Under the pieces are notes generated by a model. That model was not told the DNA's origin and made no database searches. It saw only the letters and a program-made list of their open reading frames with translations. A stretch of DNA of 5,477 nt from a virus: positions 1-5,477 of the IMG/VR virus record IMGVR_UViG_3300045988_096731; one strand, written 5' to 3'. Below, in pieces: positions 1 through 5,477 of the stretch. The position numbers and the translations under genes were made by a program. How positions within the stretch are numbered: position 1 is the first letter of the stretch; each line of letters opens with the position of its first letter.

Positions 1-96
1 ATGAAAGTTGGTACTCCGGTCGCGTTGTTTTGTTGGCTTGTACTAGCCATTTTAGTTGTCTCCTTAGTGATTAGTATATTGGATGTTTTTTTATAA
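1..96 (+). CDS. Duplicate copy of the 31-aa membrane peptide ORF, inside the terminal redundancy
   Basis: Identical sequence to 5337..5432. It is the same gene on the circular map. Confidence 0.55.
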   Translation: MKVGTPVALFCWLVLAILVVSLVISILDVFL

Positions 97-141
97 GGAG
101 TTGATGTTGTATGAAACGACAAAAAATGAGTAAAAAAAAGA
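1..141. repeat. Terminal redundancy, left copy (identical to 5337..5477); signature of a circular genome or linearisation artefact
   Basis: Base-by-base comparison: atgaaagttggtactccggtcgcg...aatgagtaaaaaaaaga occurs at 1..141 and again at 5337..5477. Confidence 0.95.
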
Positions 142-224
142 GTAATAAAAACTTCCGTCGCGGAATGAAAGTTAATCCGAAAAATAAGCGCCCCATCCCC
201 ATGCGCGGTGGTTTTAGAATGTAA
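111..224 (+). CDS. Small highly basic DNA-binding/packaging protein (gokushovirus ORF8/VP8-type, functional analogue of phiX174 J), 37 aa: MKRQKMSKKKSNKNFRRGMKVNPKNKRPIPMRGGFRM
   Basis: AAGGAG at 95..100 lies 10 nt before the ATG at 111, and TAA is at 222..224. 14 of 37 residues are K or R and none is acidic. The C-terminal P-x-RGG-x-R-hydrophobic tail resembles my recollection of the small basic proteins of SpV4 and Chlamydia microviruses. It sits immediately upstream of VP4. Confidence 0.7.
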   Translation: MKRQKMSKKKSNKNFRRGMKVNPKNKRPIPMRGGFRM

Positions 225-258: not shown

Positions 259-1176
259 ATGCCATGTTATCATCCCATTCCGATGTGGTATAGTAAGGAT
301 GTGAATAAAGAAACCGGTAAACGCTCTTTGACGGCGAATTATGGTAATGCTTGGCGTCCGCTTGGTCGGCTTCCGGAGACGATTTACGTTCCGTGTGGTC
401 AGTGCGTTGGCTGCCGGCTTGAGTATAGCCGGCAGTGGGCCATGCGTTGTGTACATGAGTTTGAAATGGCCGGTCGTGTTGGATCCTTCCTCACTCTTAC
501 ATATAGTCCCGAACATTTGCCGGAAGATGGTAAAATTCATAAAGATGTTTTTCAAAAGTTCATGAAACGTCTTCGAAAACGGTTTGGCAGCGGTCTTCGC
601 TTTTTTGCTTGCGGTGAATACGGCCACAAGTTTAAAAGACCACACTATCATGCAGTTATTTTTGGCTTGCGATTCCCGGATTTAATGATCCATACAGTTA
701 AGCACGGTTTCCAGTATTATCGTAGTCCTACGCTGGAGAAGTTGTGGCCCTACGGATTCAGCCTGATCGGCAGCGTTACGTTTGAGTCGTGCGCTTATGT
801 CGCTCGCTATGTGATGAAAAAGCAAAAAGGTGATGATGTTGACGAATCTTTGCAGCCGTTTGTCTTGATGTCGCGTATGCCAGGTCTCGGTCATGATTGG
901 TACGAAAAGTATAAAAGCCAGGTTTATCCAAATGACTTTATTGTCGTCCGTGACGGTGTGACTTGTAAGCCGCCTGCGTATTATGATTCCTTGTTAGAAA
1001 AGGACGATCCTGATTTGTATGAGAAAGTCAAAAATGCCCGCCAAGACAAGTATCGTCGTGACGAGTCAATGACAACGGAAGAGTATGAAATTGCTCAGAT
1101 CCAAGAGCGGTTAAAAGCTCGCAAACTAACTAAACTTGTGCGCCAGCTGCATGACGATGTAGATATGTACGAGTAA
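259..1176 (+). CDS. VP4: Replication initiation protein VP4 (HUH rolling-circle endonuclease, phiX174 gpA family), 305 aa
   Basis: Typical gokushovirus VP4 features: N-terminal MPCYHPI, CGQCVGCRLEYSRQWAMRC, FLTLTY, and the HUH motif HYH (643..651, in RPHYHAVIFG). The two-tyrosine catalytic motif YVARY (Y codons at 796..798 and 808..810) compares with YVAKY in phiX174 A. GGAG at 245..248 lies 10 nt before the ATG. Confidence 0.95.
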   Translation: MPCYHPIPMWYSKDVNKETGKRSLTANYGNAWRPLGRLPETIYVPCGQCVGCRLEYSRQWAMRCVHEFEMAGRVGSFLTLTYSPEHLPEDGKIHKDVFQKFMKRLRKRFGSGLRFFACGEYGHKFKRPHYHAVIFGLRFPDLMIHTVKHGFQYYRSPTLEKLWPYGFSLIGSVTFESCAYVARYVMKKQKGDDVDESLQPFVLMSRMPGLGHDWYEKYKSQVYPNDFIVVRDGVTCKPPAYYDSLLEKDDPDLYEKVKNARQDKYRRDESMTTEEYEIAQIQERLKARKLTKLVRQLHDDVDMYE

Positions 1177-1398: not shown

Positions 1399-1677
1399 AT
1401 GCTTAAAGTTTATTCAATCTTGGATGATAAGGCACAGTGCTTTAATACGCCGTACTTTGCCCAGAATGACCTGGTTGCTAGCCGTTCTTTTAGTGATTTG
1501 TGTAATGATAGTCGGAGTCTTGTTAGTCAGCACCTCGGCGATTTCCACTTGTATTGTTTAGGTGAGTTTGATGATGAAAAAGGCATCCTTAAGCCGTATG
1601 ATATGCCTAATTTTGTTAGTCATGCCTTACAGTACGCTAATGTCGAAAGGAGCGATGCTGATGGAGATACGCTCTAG
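1399..1677 (+). CDS. VP5: Nonstructural protein VP5 (gokushovirus ORF5 family), 92 aa
   Basis: MLKVYSILDDKAQCFNTPYFAQNDLVASRSFSDL...DFHLYCLGEFDDEKG matches the remembered VP5 pattern (F-x-TPFF, A-x-R-x-FSD, L-x-x-G-x-FDD). AGGAG at 1384..1388 lies 10 nt before the ATG. The position between VP4 and VP3 is canonical. Confidence 0.85.
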   Translation: MLKVYSILDDKAQCFNTPYFAQNDLVASRSFSDLCNDSRSLVSQHLGDFHLYCLGEFDDEKGILKPYDMPNFVSHALQYANVERSDADGDTL

Positions 1678-2098
1678 ATATAATGCCGGCGTTCGGGAAG
1701 GTTGGAAATCTTCCGTTCTTTCTATGACGCAGCAGCAGTTTAAGGACGAAGCAGATATCAATTATATCGTTTCAATGTACGATTCTTCTGGCGTGATGCC
1801 TACGTTCCATGGTGATGGTCAGCCTGCGCAGCCTGTTTTCGGTGATTTTGCATCGCTGCCGGATAATGCGCAGGAGATGTACAATCGCATGATAGAGGCT
1901 AAAAATAACTTTGACAATTTGCCATTGGAGGTTCGCAAGCGTTTTAATTACGACCCTGCTGCTTTTTTGGAATTTGCTGACAATCCGGAAAATTTGGATG
2001 AGCTTGTGGCCATGGGTCTTGCTACAAAGACCGTTATTAAGTCTGATAATCATACGGAAAATACGGATAATAATGCAGGCGATAGTGCCAATGAATAA
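1661..2098 (+). CDS. VP3: Internal scaffolding protein VP3, 145 aa from the ATG at 1661 (the ORF is open from 1562)
   Basis: MEIRSRYNAG...FKDEADINYIV...LPLEVRKRFNYDPAAFLEFADNPENLDELVAMGLA matches the conserved gokushovirus VP3 core (FKDE-x-DIN, R-x-RF-x-x-DP-x-x-FLEF). The start was chosen because AAGGAG at 1647..1652 lies 8 nt upstream of the ATG at 1661. The ATG at 1655 is only 2 nt from the SD, and 1562 has no SD. The gene overlaps the VP5 3' end by 17 nt. Confidence 0.85.
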   Translation: MEIRSRYNAGVREGWKSSVLSMTQQQFKDEADINYIVSMYDSSGVMPTFHGDGQPAQPVFGDFASLPDNAQEMYNRMIEAKNNFDNLPLEVRKRFNYDPAAFLEFADNPENLDELVAMGLATKTVIKSDNHTENTDNNAGDSANE

Positions 2099-2259: not shown

Positions 2260-3972
2260 ATGTCAAAAAGAGCTACTCAGCACAGTTTTGCTATAAGCCC
2301 TCAGAATCAAGTTCCCCGGTCTTCTTTCAAGCGCTCACATACAGTAAAAACTACACTGGATGCAGGCCGGCTTGTTCCGTTTTATATTGATGAAGTTTAT
2401 CCTGGCGACACCTTTAACTGCAAGGCGACGCTTTTCGGTCGTATGGCCACGCCCATCGTTCCGGCTATGGATAATGCTTATATGGATACTTTTTTCTTTT
2501 TCGTTCCGTATCGTCTTCTTTGGAAGCACTGGAAGGAGTTTAACGGCGAAAATCCGCTTGCCGGCTATCAAAGTACAGAGTACGAAGTACCGCAGATGAC
2601 GGCCACCAATGCGCAGGTTCAGACGCTTTGGGACTATTTCGGTTTCCCGACCGATGTAAAAAATAAGCTTTCGGTTTCTGCTTTCCCTTTCAGAGCATAT
2701 TGGAAGATTTACAATGATTGGTTCCGTGACGAAAATCTTCAAAACGCTGTGTCTATCCAGACTGGCGCGCCGCTTTCTTCGACATCTTCTGAAGACGACG
2801 CTTATGGCGGCGATGCTACGCAGGATGCTACAACGGCACAGTGTTTCTATCGCGGCAAGCGTCATGATTATTTCACAAGTGCGCTTCCTTGGCCGCAAAA
2901 AGGTCCCGGCGTAGAATTACCTCTTGGTCAAACCGCTTCTGTTTCCGGCTCGCTTCCGGTTTCCGGCTTGCTTCCGGTTACTGGAGCTGTTACTATTAAT
3001 CGCCCTTCTGAGTGGACTGGCGATGGTCCCCGTCTTCTCTCACTTACTAACCATGATTCTGAACCTTCTGTTTCTGCTGTTTATACTACTGGTGGTATTC
3101 AATTTCAACCAAGAGCATATCTTGATATGTCTGTTGCAAATGGCACTGCTGATGCTTCTCATGCTACAGCTGATGCGTCAAAAGCGGTGGTTGATTTGTC
3201 AAGTGCAACGGCAATTACAATCAATAGCTTACGTTCTGCTTTTGCGCTTCAACGATTTTATGAAAAAGATGCTCGTGGTGGTACCCGATACACTGAAATT
3301 ATTCGCTCCCATTTCGGTATTATTTCGCCGGATGCTCGTTTACAGCGCAGCGAATACCTCGGCGGTGATTCAACCCCGATTATGTTCAATCCCGTGCAGC
3401 AGACTTCGTCTACCGACACTACTTCTCCGCAAGGTAACTTATCTGCGTATGCTTTGATGAGCACGCGCGTCCACGGATTTAATAAATCTTTTACAGAGCA
3501 CGGCATTGTGATTGGTTTGTGCAATATTCGCACTGATTTGAGTTATCAGCAAGGTATCAATAAGACATGGCTTAGACAAACTCGTGAAGAATTTTATTGG
3601 CCCACTTTTGCTCATCTCGGCGAACAGGCTATTCTTAACAAGGAGATTTACGCGCAGGGTACTGAGAGCGACAACCAGGTTTTTGGTTACCAAGAACGTT
3701 ATGCTGAATGCCGTTATCATCCTTCTATCATTACCGGCAAGATGCGCTCGACATATGCACAGAGTACGGATGTATGGCATTTTGCGCAAAAATTCGATGC
3801 GCTTCCCGCTCTCAATGGTGAATTTATCCAAGACCAGGCCAGCTACCAAGCTATTAAGCGTATTAGTGCGGTACAGTCTGAACCGCAGTTTTATCTTGAT
3901 GTGTATTTAGATTTAAAATGTGCTCGCCCGATGCCGGTTTACGGCGTCCCTGGCATGCTTGATCACTTCTAA
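2260..3972 (+). CDS. VP1: Major capsid protein VP1 (Microviridae F-type capsid), 570 aa
   Basis: Conserved gokushovirus VP1 blocks are present: LVPFYIDEVYPGDTF, TPIVPAMDNAYMDTFFFFVPYRLLW, FRAYWKIYNDWFRDENLQ, LRSAFALQRFYEKDARGGTRYTEIIRSHFG, and YGYQERYAE-type (here FGYQERYAECRY). AGGAG at 2245..2249 lies 10 nt before the ATG. A long variable insertion at roughly 2760..3200 corresponds to the three-fold protrusion loop. Confidence 0.97.
   Translation: MSKRATQHSFAISPQNQVPRSSFKRSHTVKTTLDAGRLVPFYIDEVYPGDTFNCKATLFGRMATPIVPAMDNAYMDTFFFFVPYRLLWKHWKEFNGENPLAGYQSTEYEVPQMTATNAQVQTLWDYFGFPTDVKNKLSVSAFPFRAYWKIYNDWFRDENLQNAVSIQTGAPLSSTSSEDDAYGGDATQDATTAQCFYRGKRHDYFTSALPWPQKGPGVELPLGQTASVSGSLPVSGLLPVTGAVTINRPSEWTGDGPRLLSLTNHDSEPSVSAVYTTGGIQFQPRAYLDMSVANGTADASHATADASKAVVDLSSATAITINSLRSAFALQRFYEKDARGGTRYTEIIRSHFGIISPDARLQRSEYLGGDSTPIMFNPVQQTSSTDTTSPQGNLSAYALMSTRVHGFNKSFTEHGIVIGLCNIRTDLSYQQGINKTWLRQTREEFYWPTFAHLGEQAILNKEIYAQGTESDNQVFGYQERYAECRYHPSIITGKMRSTYAQSTDVWHFAQKFDALPALNGEFIQDQASYQAIKRISAVQSEPQFYLDVYLDLKCARPMPVYGVPGMLDHF
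2941..2976 (+). repeat. Tandem 18-bp duplication (17/18 identical) inside the VP1 variable loop, encoding VSGSLP-VSGLLP
   Basis: gtttccggctcgcttccg (2941..2958) is followed directly by gtttccggcttgcttccg (2959..2976). Confidence 0.85.
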
Positions 3973-3988: not shown

Positions 3989-5032
3989 ATGAGTTGGTTA
4001 TCGTCGGTTGCCGGTGCTGCTCTTGGTATATGGTCGGGTAATAAATCGGCTAATGCCCAGGCTGCACTTTCGCGTGAGCAAATGCAGTGGCAATCGCAGG
4101 AAGCACAAAAAACTCGCGATTGGCAAGAAAAAATGTCTTCTACTGCTCACCAGCGTGAGATTGAAGATTTGCGTAAGGCTGGCTTGAATCCCATGCTTTC
4201 CGGCATGGGTGGCCAGGGCGCGTCTACACCTGCCGGTGCGACTGCTTCTTATTCTTCTAATGCTTATACTGGTTACGGTTCGGATGTTTCTAATGGTATC
4301 AATGCTATGACTGGTATGTATTCCGCTAAAACCAACCGAAAAATTCAGCAGCAGCAAGAAAAAAATTTGGAACAGCAAAATTTGAATCTTAGTGCAGATA
4401 CATATAAAAAGACGCAGGAAGGTCGTGCTGCATCGACTGAAGCAGATTATAAAAAGGCTATGTTAGAGACTCAGTTAGTGCAGCTACTCGCTAATGCGAA
4501 TAATTTACAGGCTAGTGCTGATTTTACAAAAGGCGTTGGCACTGCGAAAGCACAGTCTGAGATTGATAAATACAATGCTGAAACTCGGTATATTAGTGGC
4601 CCACAGACGGATGTCGCGAATGCGACGACTGCGAATCTAGGAGCGCAGACAAACCGGATTAATGCTTTACTGCCACATGAAATCGCGAAAATTGATAGCG
4701 ATATCGAAAAAAATGTACATGAAATTTTACGAATTGATTCTGAAACGAGTTTAAATCAGGTTAAAATGATGACTGAAAAGTATGTGCAAGGCGAACTTAG
4801 TGCCCGATCGCTTGTTGAGTATTTGCAAGCTAAAGGTCAGACTGAAGATAATGCGCTAAAGTTTGTAAATCGTGTGCGCGCTCAGATAGATCTAAAACAG
4901 TATCAAACTCAGAATCGCTATTCTGGTGTTACTCCGCAAGGCCCTTATGAACGTTTGGCCCGCATTCTTGGTAATGCGAAAGGTCTTGTTGATGCTTCCC
5001 CGTTTGGCCTCATCACGCAGATTCTTAAGTGA
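3989..5032 (+). CDS. VP2: Minor capsid / DNA pilot protein VP2, 347 aa
   Basis: The N-terminal region S-x-AHQREIEDLRKAGLNPML matches the hallmark VP2 motif (remembered as NTAYQR...AGLNPML). A Gly/Ala/Ser-rich segment and a long Q/N/K-rich helical region follow. AAGGAG ending at 3978 lies 10 nt before the ATG. The position after VP1 is canonical. Confidence 0.9.
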   Translation: MSWLSSVAGAALGIWSGNKSANAQAALSREQMQWQSQEAQKTRDWQEKMSSTAHQREIEDLRKAGLNPMLSGMGGQGASTPAGATASYSSNAYTGYGSDVSNGINAMTGMYSAKTNRKIQQQQEKNLEQQNLNLSADTYKKTQEGRAASTEADYKKAMLETQLVQLLANANNLQASADFTKGVGTAKAQSEIDKYNAETRYISGPQTDVANATTANLGAQTNRINALLPHEIAKIDSDIEKNVHEILRIDSETSLNQVKMMTEKYVQGELSARSLVEYLQAKGQTEDNALKFVNRVRAQIDLKQYQTQNRYSGVTPQGPYERLARILGNAKGLVDASPFGLITQILK

Positions 5033-5127
5033 TTTCGGTTTTCCCTTGATTGCCCTGTGAAATTGTTTCACTCTCGTATTAGTGGAACGGTGACGTGCTG
5101 CGGCGTTTAGTCTATCATCCCTTTCTA

Positions 5128-5156
5128 TTGACATTTTATTAGATATCTGTTAGAAT
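5128..5156 (+). promoter_or_regulatory. Near-consensus sigma70-type promoter: TTGACA, 17-nt spacer, TAGAAT with extended -10 TG
   Basis: TTGACA at 5128..5133, a 17-nt spacer at 5134..5150, and TAGAAT at 5151..5156 preceded by TGT (TGnTAGAAT). It lies in the 143-nt VP2-downstream intergenic region, 20 nt upstream of the ATG at 5176. Confidence 0.7.
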
Positions 5157-5165
5157 ACTAACAGA
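5146..5165. promoter_or_regulatory. Operator-like inverted repeat TCTGTTA-N6-TAACAGA spanning the -10 box and the predicted transcription start
   Basis: TCTGTTA at 5146..5152 is the reverse complement of TAACAGA at 5159..5165. The adjacent 8-bp palindrome AGATATCT sits at 5141..5148. The direct repeat TAGATAT occurs at 5140..5146 and 5171..5177, 31 nt apart, and the second copy overlaps the ATG. Confidence 0.45.
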
Positions 5166-5175
5166 GGTGATAGAT

Positions 5176-5340
5176 ATGAGAAAAACTCGTAGTATTTATT
5201 GTTCAGATGATGAGTACAAGCATCTGAAGATCGCATTACGTTTTATGCGCGTTTTTGATGCGCTGTCGGTTGATGACTTGTCTGATGAGCAGCGGTCTAA
5301 GTATTTCCTGGAAATCATAAAAGGAGATGATGAAGAATGA
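5176..5340 (+). CDS. Hypothetical 54-aa protein (MRKTRSIYCSDDEYKHLKIALRFMRVFDALSVDDLSDEQRSKYFLEIIKGDDEE); possible small DNA-binding (ribbon-helix-helix-like) regulator
   Basis: Hand translation gives ATG at 5176 and TGA at 5338..5340. A GAGGTGAT Shine-Dalgarno at 5164..5171 lies just upstream. The ORF starts 20 nt after a strong promoter and its stop overlaps the next ATG (ATGA). It is too short to appear in the supplied ORF track. The basic N-terminus, putative strand-helix-helix pattern and acidic tail are only suggestive of function. Confidence 0.6.
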   Translation: MRKTRSIYCSDDEYKHLKIALRFMRVFDALSVDDLSDEQRSKYFLEIIKGDDEE

Positions 5341-5432
5341 AAGTTGGTACTCCGGTCGCGTTGTTTTGTTGGCTTGTACTAGCCATTTTAGTTGTCTCCT
5401 TAGTGATTAGTATATTGGATGTTTTTTTATAA
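5337..5432 (+). CDS. Hypothetical 31-aa single-pass membrane peptide (MKVGTPVALFCWLVLAILVVSLVISILDVFL)
   Basis: The ATG at 5337 overlaps the upstream stop (ATGA). AAGGAG at 5321..5326 lies exactly 10 nt before the ATG, the same spacing as the confirmed genes. An uninterrupted hydrophobic core of about 20 residues is present. The stop TAA is embedded in the SD (TAAGGAG) of the next gene. Confidence 0.55.
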   Translation: MKVGTPVALFCWLVLAILVVSLVISILDVFL

Positions 5433-5477
5433 GGAGTTGATGTTGTATGAAACGACAAAAAATGAGTAAAAAAAAGA
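5337..5477. repeat. Terminal redundancy, right copy (identical to 1..141)
   Basis: Same as the left copy. It contains a full second copy of the 31-aa ORF (5337..5432) and the first 31 nt of the basic-protein gene (5447..5477, truncated by the window end). Confidence 0.95.

Follow-up and report, generated by a model that had tools for sequence, protein, structure and literature searches.

The window analysed here is the whole 5,477-nt stretch of the IMG/VR virus record IMGVR_UViG_3300045988_096731. It corresponds to a complete circular gokushovirus genome of 5336 nt plus a 141-nt terminal duplication, and its subject of interest is a 31-codon open reading frame (ORF) encoding a peptide with a single predicted transmembrane segment, MKVGTPVALFCWLVLAILVVSLVISILDVFL, which we call mini-TM. 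Comparison with related genomes indicates that mini-TM is very likely a real protein-coding gene under purifying selection, and its product is very probably a membrane peptide made up almost wholly of one hydrophobic helix. Our top-ranked hypothesis for its function, with a probability of roughly 0.35, is that it lyses the host as small single-gene lysis (Sgl) proteins do. The sequence-only reading that drew attention to this ORF placed it at 5337-5432. An ORF is present there as described, with its ATG at 5337 and its TAA at 5430-5432, although this is only the second copy of the ORF at 1-96: positions 1-141 are identical to 5337-5477, and a feature in either copy is the same feature.

The ORF is too short to be convincing by its existence. 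From base composition, a 31-codon open frame arises by chance with a probability of ~0.18 (rough arithmetic), and the hydrophobicity of the product alone is not significant because several alternative-frame ORFs on this T-rich strand are equally hydrophobic. What lifts mini-TM above chance is its conservation. An intact homologue of 31, 33, 36 or 37 amino acids (aa) occupies the same place in every genome of the source clade that covers the region (~33 contigs, with at least 26 peptide alleles). The sole exception, contig L174, has a C-terminus shifted exactly at a contig junction and is for that reason treated as an assembly artefact. Two GenBank genomes can be aligned over this stretch, and both keep the ORF with mostly silent or conservative changes. 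In four more relatives from pig faeces the spacer from VP2 to VP4 cannot be aligned, and a 33-aa hydrophobic ORF with a ribosome-binding site is found in the same place; the 36- and 37-aa forms come from IMG/VR, JGI, ENA and Logan contigs. The sequence-only reading had suggested looking in relatives for a syntenic hydrophobic mini-ORF, and one is there, conserved and uninterrupted, even where the flanking DNA is unalignable.

The pattern of change within the family is that of a translated sequence. ORF lengths are 96, 102, 111 and 114 nt, so that all differences are multiples of three. Ratios of nonsynonymous to synonymous change (dN/dS, Nei-Gojobori) are 0.21 in the 31-aa group, 0.26 in the 33-aa group and 0.41 in the 36-aa group. 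Second codon positions vary least, accounting for three of the 26 variable sites in the 31-aa group. In a frame test the annotated frame contained no stops, compared with one to five in the other frames, and the share of silent differences was highest in the annotated frame in two of the three length groups. Identity between the 31- and 33-aa forms is only 36%, a similarity that nevertheless beats shuffled sequences (p = 0.006). Both are flanked by homologous ORF-U and VP8 genes, and two motifs are common to them, LF(C/F)(W/C/H) close to the N-terminal end and S-x-(I/L/V)-D-(V/A)-(F/L)-(F/L) at the C-terminal end. With a hidden Markov model of the family, all clade genomes give scores of 52-66 bits, and ~130 other gokushovirus loci stay below 16 bits.

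This gene has largely escaped annotation. None of seven related GenBank records examined has a gene annotated at the mini-TM locus, and a phmmer search of 1.8 billion representative proteins returned three close 31-aa relatives only. The exact peptide is present in NCBI nr as an independently called hypothetical protein, DAI60577.1, from "Microviridae sp." In one GenBank record, MT135255 (L001:1804-1908), a homopolymer at the 3' end of mini-TM reads T8 instead of T7, which turns the terminal DVFL into DVFFIRS; this reflects an error of sequencing or else a variant that is tolerated.

The ribosome-binding site of mini-TM matches those of the structural genes. The hexamer AAGGAG occurs eight times on the plus strand; VP8, VP5, VP3, VP2 and mini-TM each have one of these copies 8-10 nt ahead of the start codon. 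The sequence-only reading had noted AAGGAG 10 nt before mini-TM and the same spacing for VP8, VP4, VP5, VP1 and VP2. The full hexamer at 10 nt precedes VP8, VP5, VP2 and mini-TM, whereas VP1 has TAGGAG and VP4 has CGGAG, both at 10 nt; VP3 has AAGGAG at 8 nt. The 26-nt initiation region of mini-TM nearly repeats the corresponding regions of VP2 and VP8, and the ribosome-binding site before mini-TM is conserved in relatives. Two further details of that reading hold: the ATG overlaps the stop codon of the upstream ORF-U as ATGA (5337-5340), and the TAA opens the TAAGGAG that serves as the ribosome-binding site of the VP8-like gene. Apart from its stop within that site, mini-TM is a stand-alone ORF, overlapping ORF-U alone, by 4 nt. 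Its description as a genuine ORF is supported: it behaves as a translated gene for a single-helix membrane peptide would.

Three other features of the same stretch were considered and rejected. A 27-aa ORF in another frame (5327-5410) would start 0-3 nt after the ribosome-binding site and contains stops in relatives. A minus-strand ORF (5315-5458) was dropped since all genes of this virus family lie on one strand. A terminator-like hairpin within mini-TM (5370-5385) is a chance match, because its arms fail to pair in relatives.

The predicted structure of the product is simple. AlphaFold2 models a single helix over residues 5-30 with a confidence score (predicted local distance difference test, pLDDT) of 91, the Kyte-Doolittle mean over 19 residues is 3.0, and the summed energy on the Hessa scale is about -4.9 kcal/mol. 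Lysine is the second residue. All intact alleles collected have an aspartate four residues from the C-terminal end, with the proviso that the regular expression used for collecting alleles itself required this aspartate. The features named in the sequence-only reading, a predicted transmembrane helix with a Lys near the N-terminus and an Asp near the C-terminus, are present. A lipoprotein signal peptide was considered and rejected, as LFC is not a lipobox and the cysteine is replaced by phenylalanine in two alleles.

ORF-U and mini-TM form a fast-evolving two-gene accessory cassette between VP2 and VP8/VP4. ORF-U always precedes mini-TM, overlapping it by 4 nt (ATGA) or 8 nt, which suggests translational coupling. 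Two cassette types exist in the clade, one pairing a 54-aa ORF-U with a 31-aa peptide and the other a 59-68-aa ORF-U with a 33-37-aa peptide. No other region of the genome varies as much: nucleotide diversity (pi) is 0.2-0.3 in the cassette as opposed to 0.10-0.17 elsewhere. Upstream of the cassette lies the best sigma-70-like match of the genome, with an extended -10 element; of 34 distinct sequence contexts upstream, 27, covering both cassette types, keep its hexamers with changes in the spacer. ORF-U, mini-TM, VP8 and VP4 may therefore be read, we infer, as an operon from this promoter-like site. Homologues of ORF-U are 54-68 aa long in both cassette types, with K3, S6, Y8, C9, E13 and Y14 invariant, and AlphaFold2 predicts two helices (pLDDT 78). 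A profile search against PDB, Pfam searches with 12 members and a Foldseek search with the model gave no significant family or fold match for ORF-U; its identification as a ribbon-helix-helix protein or antitoxin is a guess that no search supports.

A key question raised by such a gene is how the phage leaves its host. Gokushoviruses are among the most abundant single-stranded DNA phages in guts and waters; they lack the phiX174 lysis protein E, and only some of them carry a peptidase. Lysis by gokushoviruses has been treated as unexplained (PMC7062461). In the genome studied here, Pfam and PHROG searches found no recognisable lysin, endolysin or peptidase, and the only stand-alone genes other than mini-TM are VP1-5, VP8 and ORF-U. 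Candidate Sgl genes have been nominated in single-stranded RNA phages by three properties, namely at least 25 codons, a proper Shine-Dalgarno sequence and a transmembrane domain according to prediction (PMC7693330). Mini-TM has all three, with 31 codons (31-37 in relatives), AAGGAG at 10 nt and a membrane helix. The high variability of the cassette fits a role in lysis, because it is expected for a gene that interacts with the host, and so does the sharing of genome slots with peptidases in other gokushoviruses, described below.

Mini-TM would sit in the host inner membrane with its N-terminus in the cytoplasm and its aspartate at the outer face, an orientation derived from the positive-inside rule. 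It would act only inside the bilayer, because it has almost no soluble part. The mechanism of lysis that we favour is a helix-to-helix contact that would block a membrane enzyme of lipid II supply, as E does with MraY or LysM with MurJ; direct membrane damage would be a less likely alternative.

Several observations weigh against this hypothesis. The mini-TM family is confined to one genus-level clade (VP4 identity of at least ~78%), and relatives at 42-59% VP4 identity, including a Phascolarctobacterium faecium prophage, lack it; it therefore cannot be a general gokushovirus lysis gene. The P. faecium prophage (L035:4429-8715) is complete (VP1, VP2, VP8, VP4, VP5, VP3), has a lexA-like gene as its neighbour on chromosomal contigs that reach 1.3 Mb, and encodes a VP4 that is 49% identical to that of the window; between its VP2 and VP8 is a 31-aa ORF that is amphipathic and not a membrane helix. 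Enterogokushoviruses, which have six annotated genes and a VP2-VP8 spacer described as "non-coding", lyse Escherichia coli (PMC7062461), so a more general lysis mechanism may exist. Most ORFs of single-stranded RNA phages that combine a ribosome-binding site with a membrane helix gave no phenotype in E. coli (PMC7693330). The sole proline of the peptide, P6, is present only in the 31-aa forms and missing from those of 33-37 aa, and the family thus lacks a proline motif like that of E. The signals of selection are weak in the 36-aa group, where dN/dS is highest and the frame test does not discriminate. Finally, the same genome holds a rival lysis candidate, an alternative-frame ORF within VP5, which is taken up below.

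A somewhat less probable reading is that the peptide is a non-lytic membrane effector, which excludes superinfecting phages or alters a host membrane protein while lysis is carried out elsewhere. Rapid allelic turnover and two deep cassette types within a single clade fit conflict between phages or between phage and host, the main promoter-like site would serve the gene and the replication genes in one transcript, and the family is absent from other gokushoviruses, which must still lyse. Superinfection immunity has also been reported for the gokushovirus EC6098 (PMC7062461). This reading has to contend with the lack of similarity between mini-TM and known exclusion or defence proteins in Pfam, PHROGs, NCBIfam and PADLOC, and it leaves the genome without any stand-alone lysis candidate. 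Nor is there a sign that the clade is temperate or in a carrier state, since no closely related integrated phage came up when 185,579 species genomes were scanned with VP1.

The constant company of ORF-U allows for another explanation, an improbable one in our view, in which the two proteins form a module: mini-TM would anchor ORF-U at the membrane for replication or assembly, or would be a toxin controlled by ORF-U. The two genes always occur together, overlap and diverge in step, ORF-U itself is conserved at six residues, and the gene order resembles that of an operon in which an antidote precedes a toxin. The pairing would also be explained by simple co-expression, however, and the peptide offers ORF-U almost no soluble surface, while ORF-U matches no family or fold that would lend the idea substance.

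We give still less credence to the possibility that mini-TM is a dispensable modulator of burst size or timing, comparable to phiX174 K, with lysis performed by the VP5 alternative-frame ORF or by a core protein. The 5' half of VP5 is the most conserved coding stretch of the genome (pi 0.03-0.05), the synonymous rate (dS) is 0.28 in the overlap with the alternative-frame ORF, about three-fold lower than the 0.80 found downstream, and third-position diversity is ~0 at codons 25-42, which overlap the membrane core of the alternative frame, WLLAVLLVICVMIVGVLLV. The frame is open in all 24 VP5 variants with its ATG at 1424 conserved, and overprinting of this kind has precedents in E of phiX174 and in orfN of phiMH2K, annotated as E/K-like. 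Yet the ORF lacks a ribosome-binding site, the first ATG of the frame (1367) is not conserved and is often ATT, and T-rich third positions yield, as a by-product, open hydrophobic frames in this register, which are seen across distant gokushoviruses. Conservation also extends over VP5 codons 1-8, upstream of the conserved ATG, and a DNA or RNA element could therefore explain it. The stretch could thus hold an overprinted gene of the E type or an element acting in cis.

That mini-TM is a translated spacer whose reading merely couples ORF-U to VP8, and whose hydrophobicity follows from the T-rich strand, is very hard to credit: its stop lies inside the VP8 ribosome-binding site, its start overlaps the ORF-U stop, T-rich sequence yields hydrophobic ORFs by default and the peptide evolves fast, but dN/dS is well under 1, second codon positions are protected, the Asp and LF(C/F)(W/C/H) persist across forms that are 36% identical, length is held within 31-37 codons and the gene has its own strong ribosome-binding site.

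Among known systems, mini-TM would work most like the small single-helix Sgl proteins, yet it is a member of no known family. Searches of Pfam, PHROGs, NCBIfam and PADLOC gave no usable match; a hit to phrog_2501 (E = 0.054) was set aside as noise. With the Sgl proteins it shares its size of 31-37 aa, its one membrane helix, its own Shine-Dalgarno sequence and a tiny genome that lacks an endolysin, as well as fast turnover with non-homologous equivalents in related phages. One example is LysM of levivirus M, a 37-residue protein that blocks MurJ (PMC12506998), so that peptides of about this length are able to do so. Mini-TM differs from the Sgl proteins in being a stand-alone gene of a DNA phage that is not overprinted, and it has no sequence similarity to them.

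The comparison with the microvirus proteins is less close. E of phiX174 inhibits MraY, depends on SlyD and is overprinted inside the scaffolding gene. Like E, mini-TM is a microvirus product with a hydrophobic membrane helix, and it would act from within the inner membrane. E, however, has 91 aa with a basic C-terminal domain, which the 31-aa peptide lacks; the helix of E has a conserved proline, which the mini-TM family does not; and the E gene lies within the scaffolding gene, whereas mini-TM lies between ORF-U and VP8. BLASTP with mini-TM gave no alignment to E at E-values up to 100 and no similarity to phiX174 K. The statement in the sequence-only reading that gokushoviruses have no recognisable E homologue accordingly holds for this genome (Pfam, BLASTP). 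In the GenBank record of phiMH2K, orfN, which is overprinted, is called "similar to phiX174 E and K". K and orfN resemble mini-TM as small hydrophobic accessory proteins of Microviridae, and orfN has a membrane-like stretch. Both are overprinted on replication genes and orfN is 109 aa long, whereas mini-TM occupies its own space.

Type I toxins are of similar size (TisB, 29 aa; Fst, 33 aa; Hok, ~50 aa) and are likewise single helices, and killing upon over-expression would look similar for them and for a lysis peptide. Type I toxins usually come from chromosomes or plasmids and have an overlapping antisense RNA as regulator. Mini-TM has no homology to them, is borne by a phage and is preceded by a protein-coding partner, whereas an antisense-RNA partner is not evident; a promoter scan of the minus strand near mini-TM found no promoter-like site. 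A holin was also considered and rejected: the C-terminal tail consists only of DVFL instead of the usual charged tail, and mini-TM is not a holin because no endolysin accompanies it.

We extended the comparison to 68 contigs of more distant gokushoviruses and to 50 genome loci. In two slots, at the VP1/VP2 junction and directly after VP2, there recur mini-TM ORFs that are unrelated to one another in sequence and follow a ribosome-binding site. In another gokushovirus clade a 20-aa ORF, MALVIWLAVVGTVVIFALGQ (L075:1955-2017), lies between VP1 and VP2 with a strong ribosome-binding site and a stop that overlaps the VP2 start, and it is conserved in 11 contigs (L075 and ten sisters from IMG sample 3300045988). 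The VP1/VP2 slot holds a 38-aa ORF in a Phascolarctobacterium-type prophage fragment and a 23-aa ORF in another; the 38-aa ORF is absent from the closely related P. faecium prophage L035 and is thus a presence/absence polymorphism. ORFs of 30 aa lie directly after VP2 in Phascolarctobacterium and Sutterella prophages. The small hydrophobic ORFs of this survey listed in Table 1 come from loci assigned to Phascolarctobacterium, Sutterella and Clostridia, where they immediately follow VP2 or VP4 or lie at the VP1/VP2 junction. By a strict count, mini-TM ORFs are found in five genomes, against 0.3 expected in shuffled intergenic sequence.

The same survey identified genes for LAS/M15-like zinc peptidases of ~105 aa in six loci, with the motifs SxHxxGxAxD and HxH and a weak match to Pfam M15_3. 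They are located upstream of VP4 in five of the six loci and at the VP1/VP2 junction in the other, in the same slots as the mini-TM ORFs. M15 peptidases are known to be carried by some gokushoviruses (PMC3394797), and "lysis-associated accessory genes" sit between VP1 and VP4 in other microvirus families (PMC9239249). The M15/LAS peptidases are the only gokushovirus lysis genes proposed before (PMC3394797; PMC9239249). Their likeness to mini-TM is one of genome position; they are soluble ~105-aa enzymes with another mechanism and no sequence kinship to it. No mini-TM ORF was found in any of the four peptidase loci scanned, but an exclusion between the two gene types then rests on four genomes, too few for an exclusion test, which also counts against the lysis hypothesis. 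A broader scenario, in which gokushovirus clades have repeatedly invented unrelated mini membrane lysis peptides of 20-50 aa in the style of single-stranded RNA phages, each with a ribosome-binding site in the VP1/VP2 or VP2/VP4 slot and swappable with an M15-like peptidase, would accommodate these patterns but is in our estimate unlikely. Were it true, the 31-aa peptide would be among the smallest phage lysis proteins reported, and its invariant aspartate would mark where it touches a membrane protein of the lipid II pathway in a diderm of the gut, for example a Negativicute.

As a lysis gene, mini-TM is a concrete and plausible candidate that faces a rival within its own genome. What was a sequence curiosity is now a defined, conserved gene family, and similar but unrelated mini membrane genes recur across gokushovirus clades in the slots of peptidases. 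Because mini-TM occupies its own genome space, a clean knockout is possible in a synthetic genome. If any of these genes proves lytic, the "protein antibiotic" idea would extend to a large phage group, and vulnerable points not known before might be revealed in the cell envelope of diderm gut bacteria. Should none be lytic, they would still form an unannotated class of phage membrane effectors, mostly missed by gene callers and GenBank records.

By its gene content the window is a member of the Gokushovirinae from the pig/human gut. It has the core set by which membership was judged (VP1, VP2, VP3, VP4, VP5 and a VP8-like gene on a circle of ~4.5-5.5 kb), with all core genes on one strand. Pfam and PHROG matches identify VP1 as Phage_F, VP3 as Chlamy_scaf, VP4 as Rep and VP5 as Phage_ORF5. 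The VP8-like gene adjoins mini-TM on its 3' side in every clade genome. The nearest GenBank relatives are unverified Gokushovirinae/Microviridae genomes from pig faeces with 84-87% DNA identity. All features are listed in Table 1.

Table 1. Coordinates of features in the window and of comparable genes in other gokushovirus loci (L numbers).
Feature	Position	Strand	Remarks
mini-TM gene, first copy	1-96	+	from identity of 1-141 with 5337-5477
VP8-like gene	111-224	+	37-aa basic DNA-binding protein; phrog_10695, E = 7e-8
VP4/Rep	259-1176	+	
VP5	1399-1677	+	
Alternative-frame ORF within VP5	1424-1561	+	45 codons; MIRHSALIRRTLPRMTWLLAVLLVICVMIVGVLLVSTSAISTCIV; hydrophobic core WLLAVLLVICVMIVGVLLV
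VP3	1661-2098	+	
VP1	2260-3972	+	
VP2	3989-5032	+	
Sigma-70-like promoter match	5128-5156	+	TTGACA-17-TAGAAT, TG before -10; 11 of 12 positions; consensus match only
ORF-U ribosome-binding site	5164-5169	+	GAGGTG, 6 nt before ATG 5176
ORF-U	5176-5340	+	54-aa acidic protein; called as gene in 6 public contigs
mini-TM Shine-Dalgarno sequence	5321-5326	+	AAGGAG, 10 nt before ATG; within last ORF-U codons
mini-TM gene, second copy	5337-5432	+	31 codons and TAA; from terminal duplication
VP8-like gene start, partial second copy	5431-5477	+	AAGGAG 5431-5436, ATG 5447
Small hydrophobic ORFs with ribosome-binding site	L046:885-1001; L118:4783-4875; L127:4630-4722; L132:1419-1490; L150:6005-6157		
LAS/M15-like peptidases	L064:4450-4767; L068:9-392; L080:100-417; L052:326-643; L078:966-1283; L082:3067-3378		

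Integrated relatives provide some information on possible hosts. In a profile scan for them the best VP4 identity was 49% or less. The nearest ones on large contigs all belong to diderm bacteria (Phascolarctobacterium, Desulfovibrionaceae and Sutterella), and a match in Veillonella lies on a contig of 7 kb only. Taken together these matches give a weak hint that the hosts may be diderm gut bacteria.

Two conserved non-coding regions were noted in addition. A block right after VP2 (5040-5110) remains alignable (82-85%) even where the downstream cassette of the relatives has diverged, and contains a palindrome, GTGAAATTGTTTCAC, at 5057-5071, which has no evident resemblance to a dif site. An island between VP3 and VP1 (2101-2250) is conserved (pi ~0.04) and includes a hairpin with a perfect 12-bp stem and an 11-nt loop (2171-2182 and 2194-2205). 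Positions 2164-2214 share 94% identity with the otherwise unrelated microviruses MG945491 (dog faeces) and PQ006928 (rodent faeces), and the island is a candidate replication origin, packaging signal or terminator.

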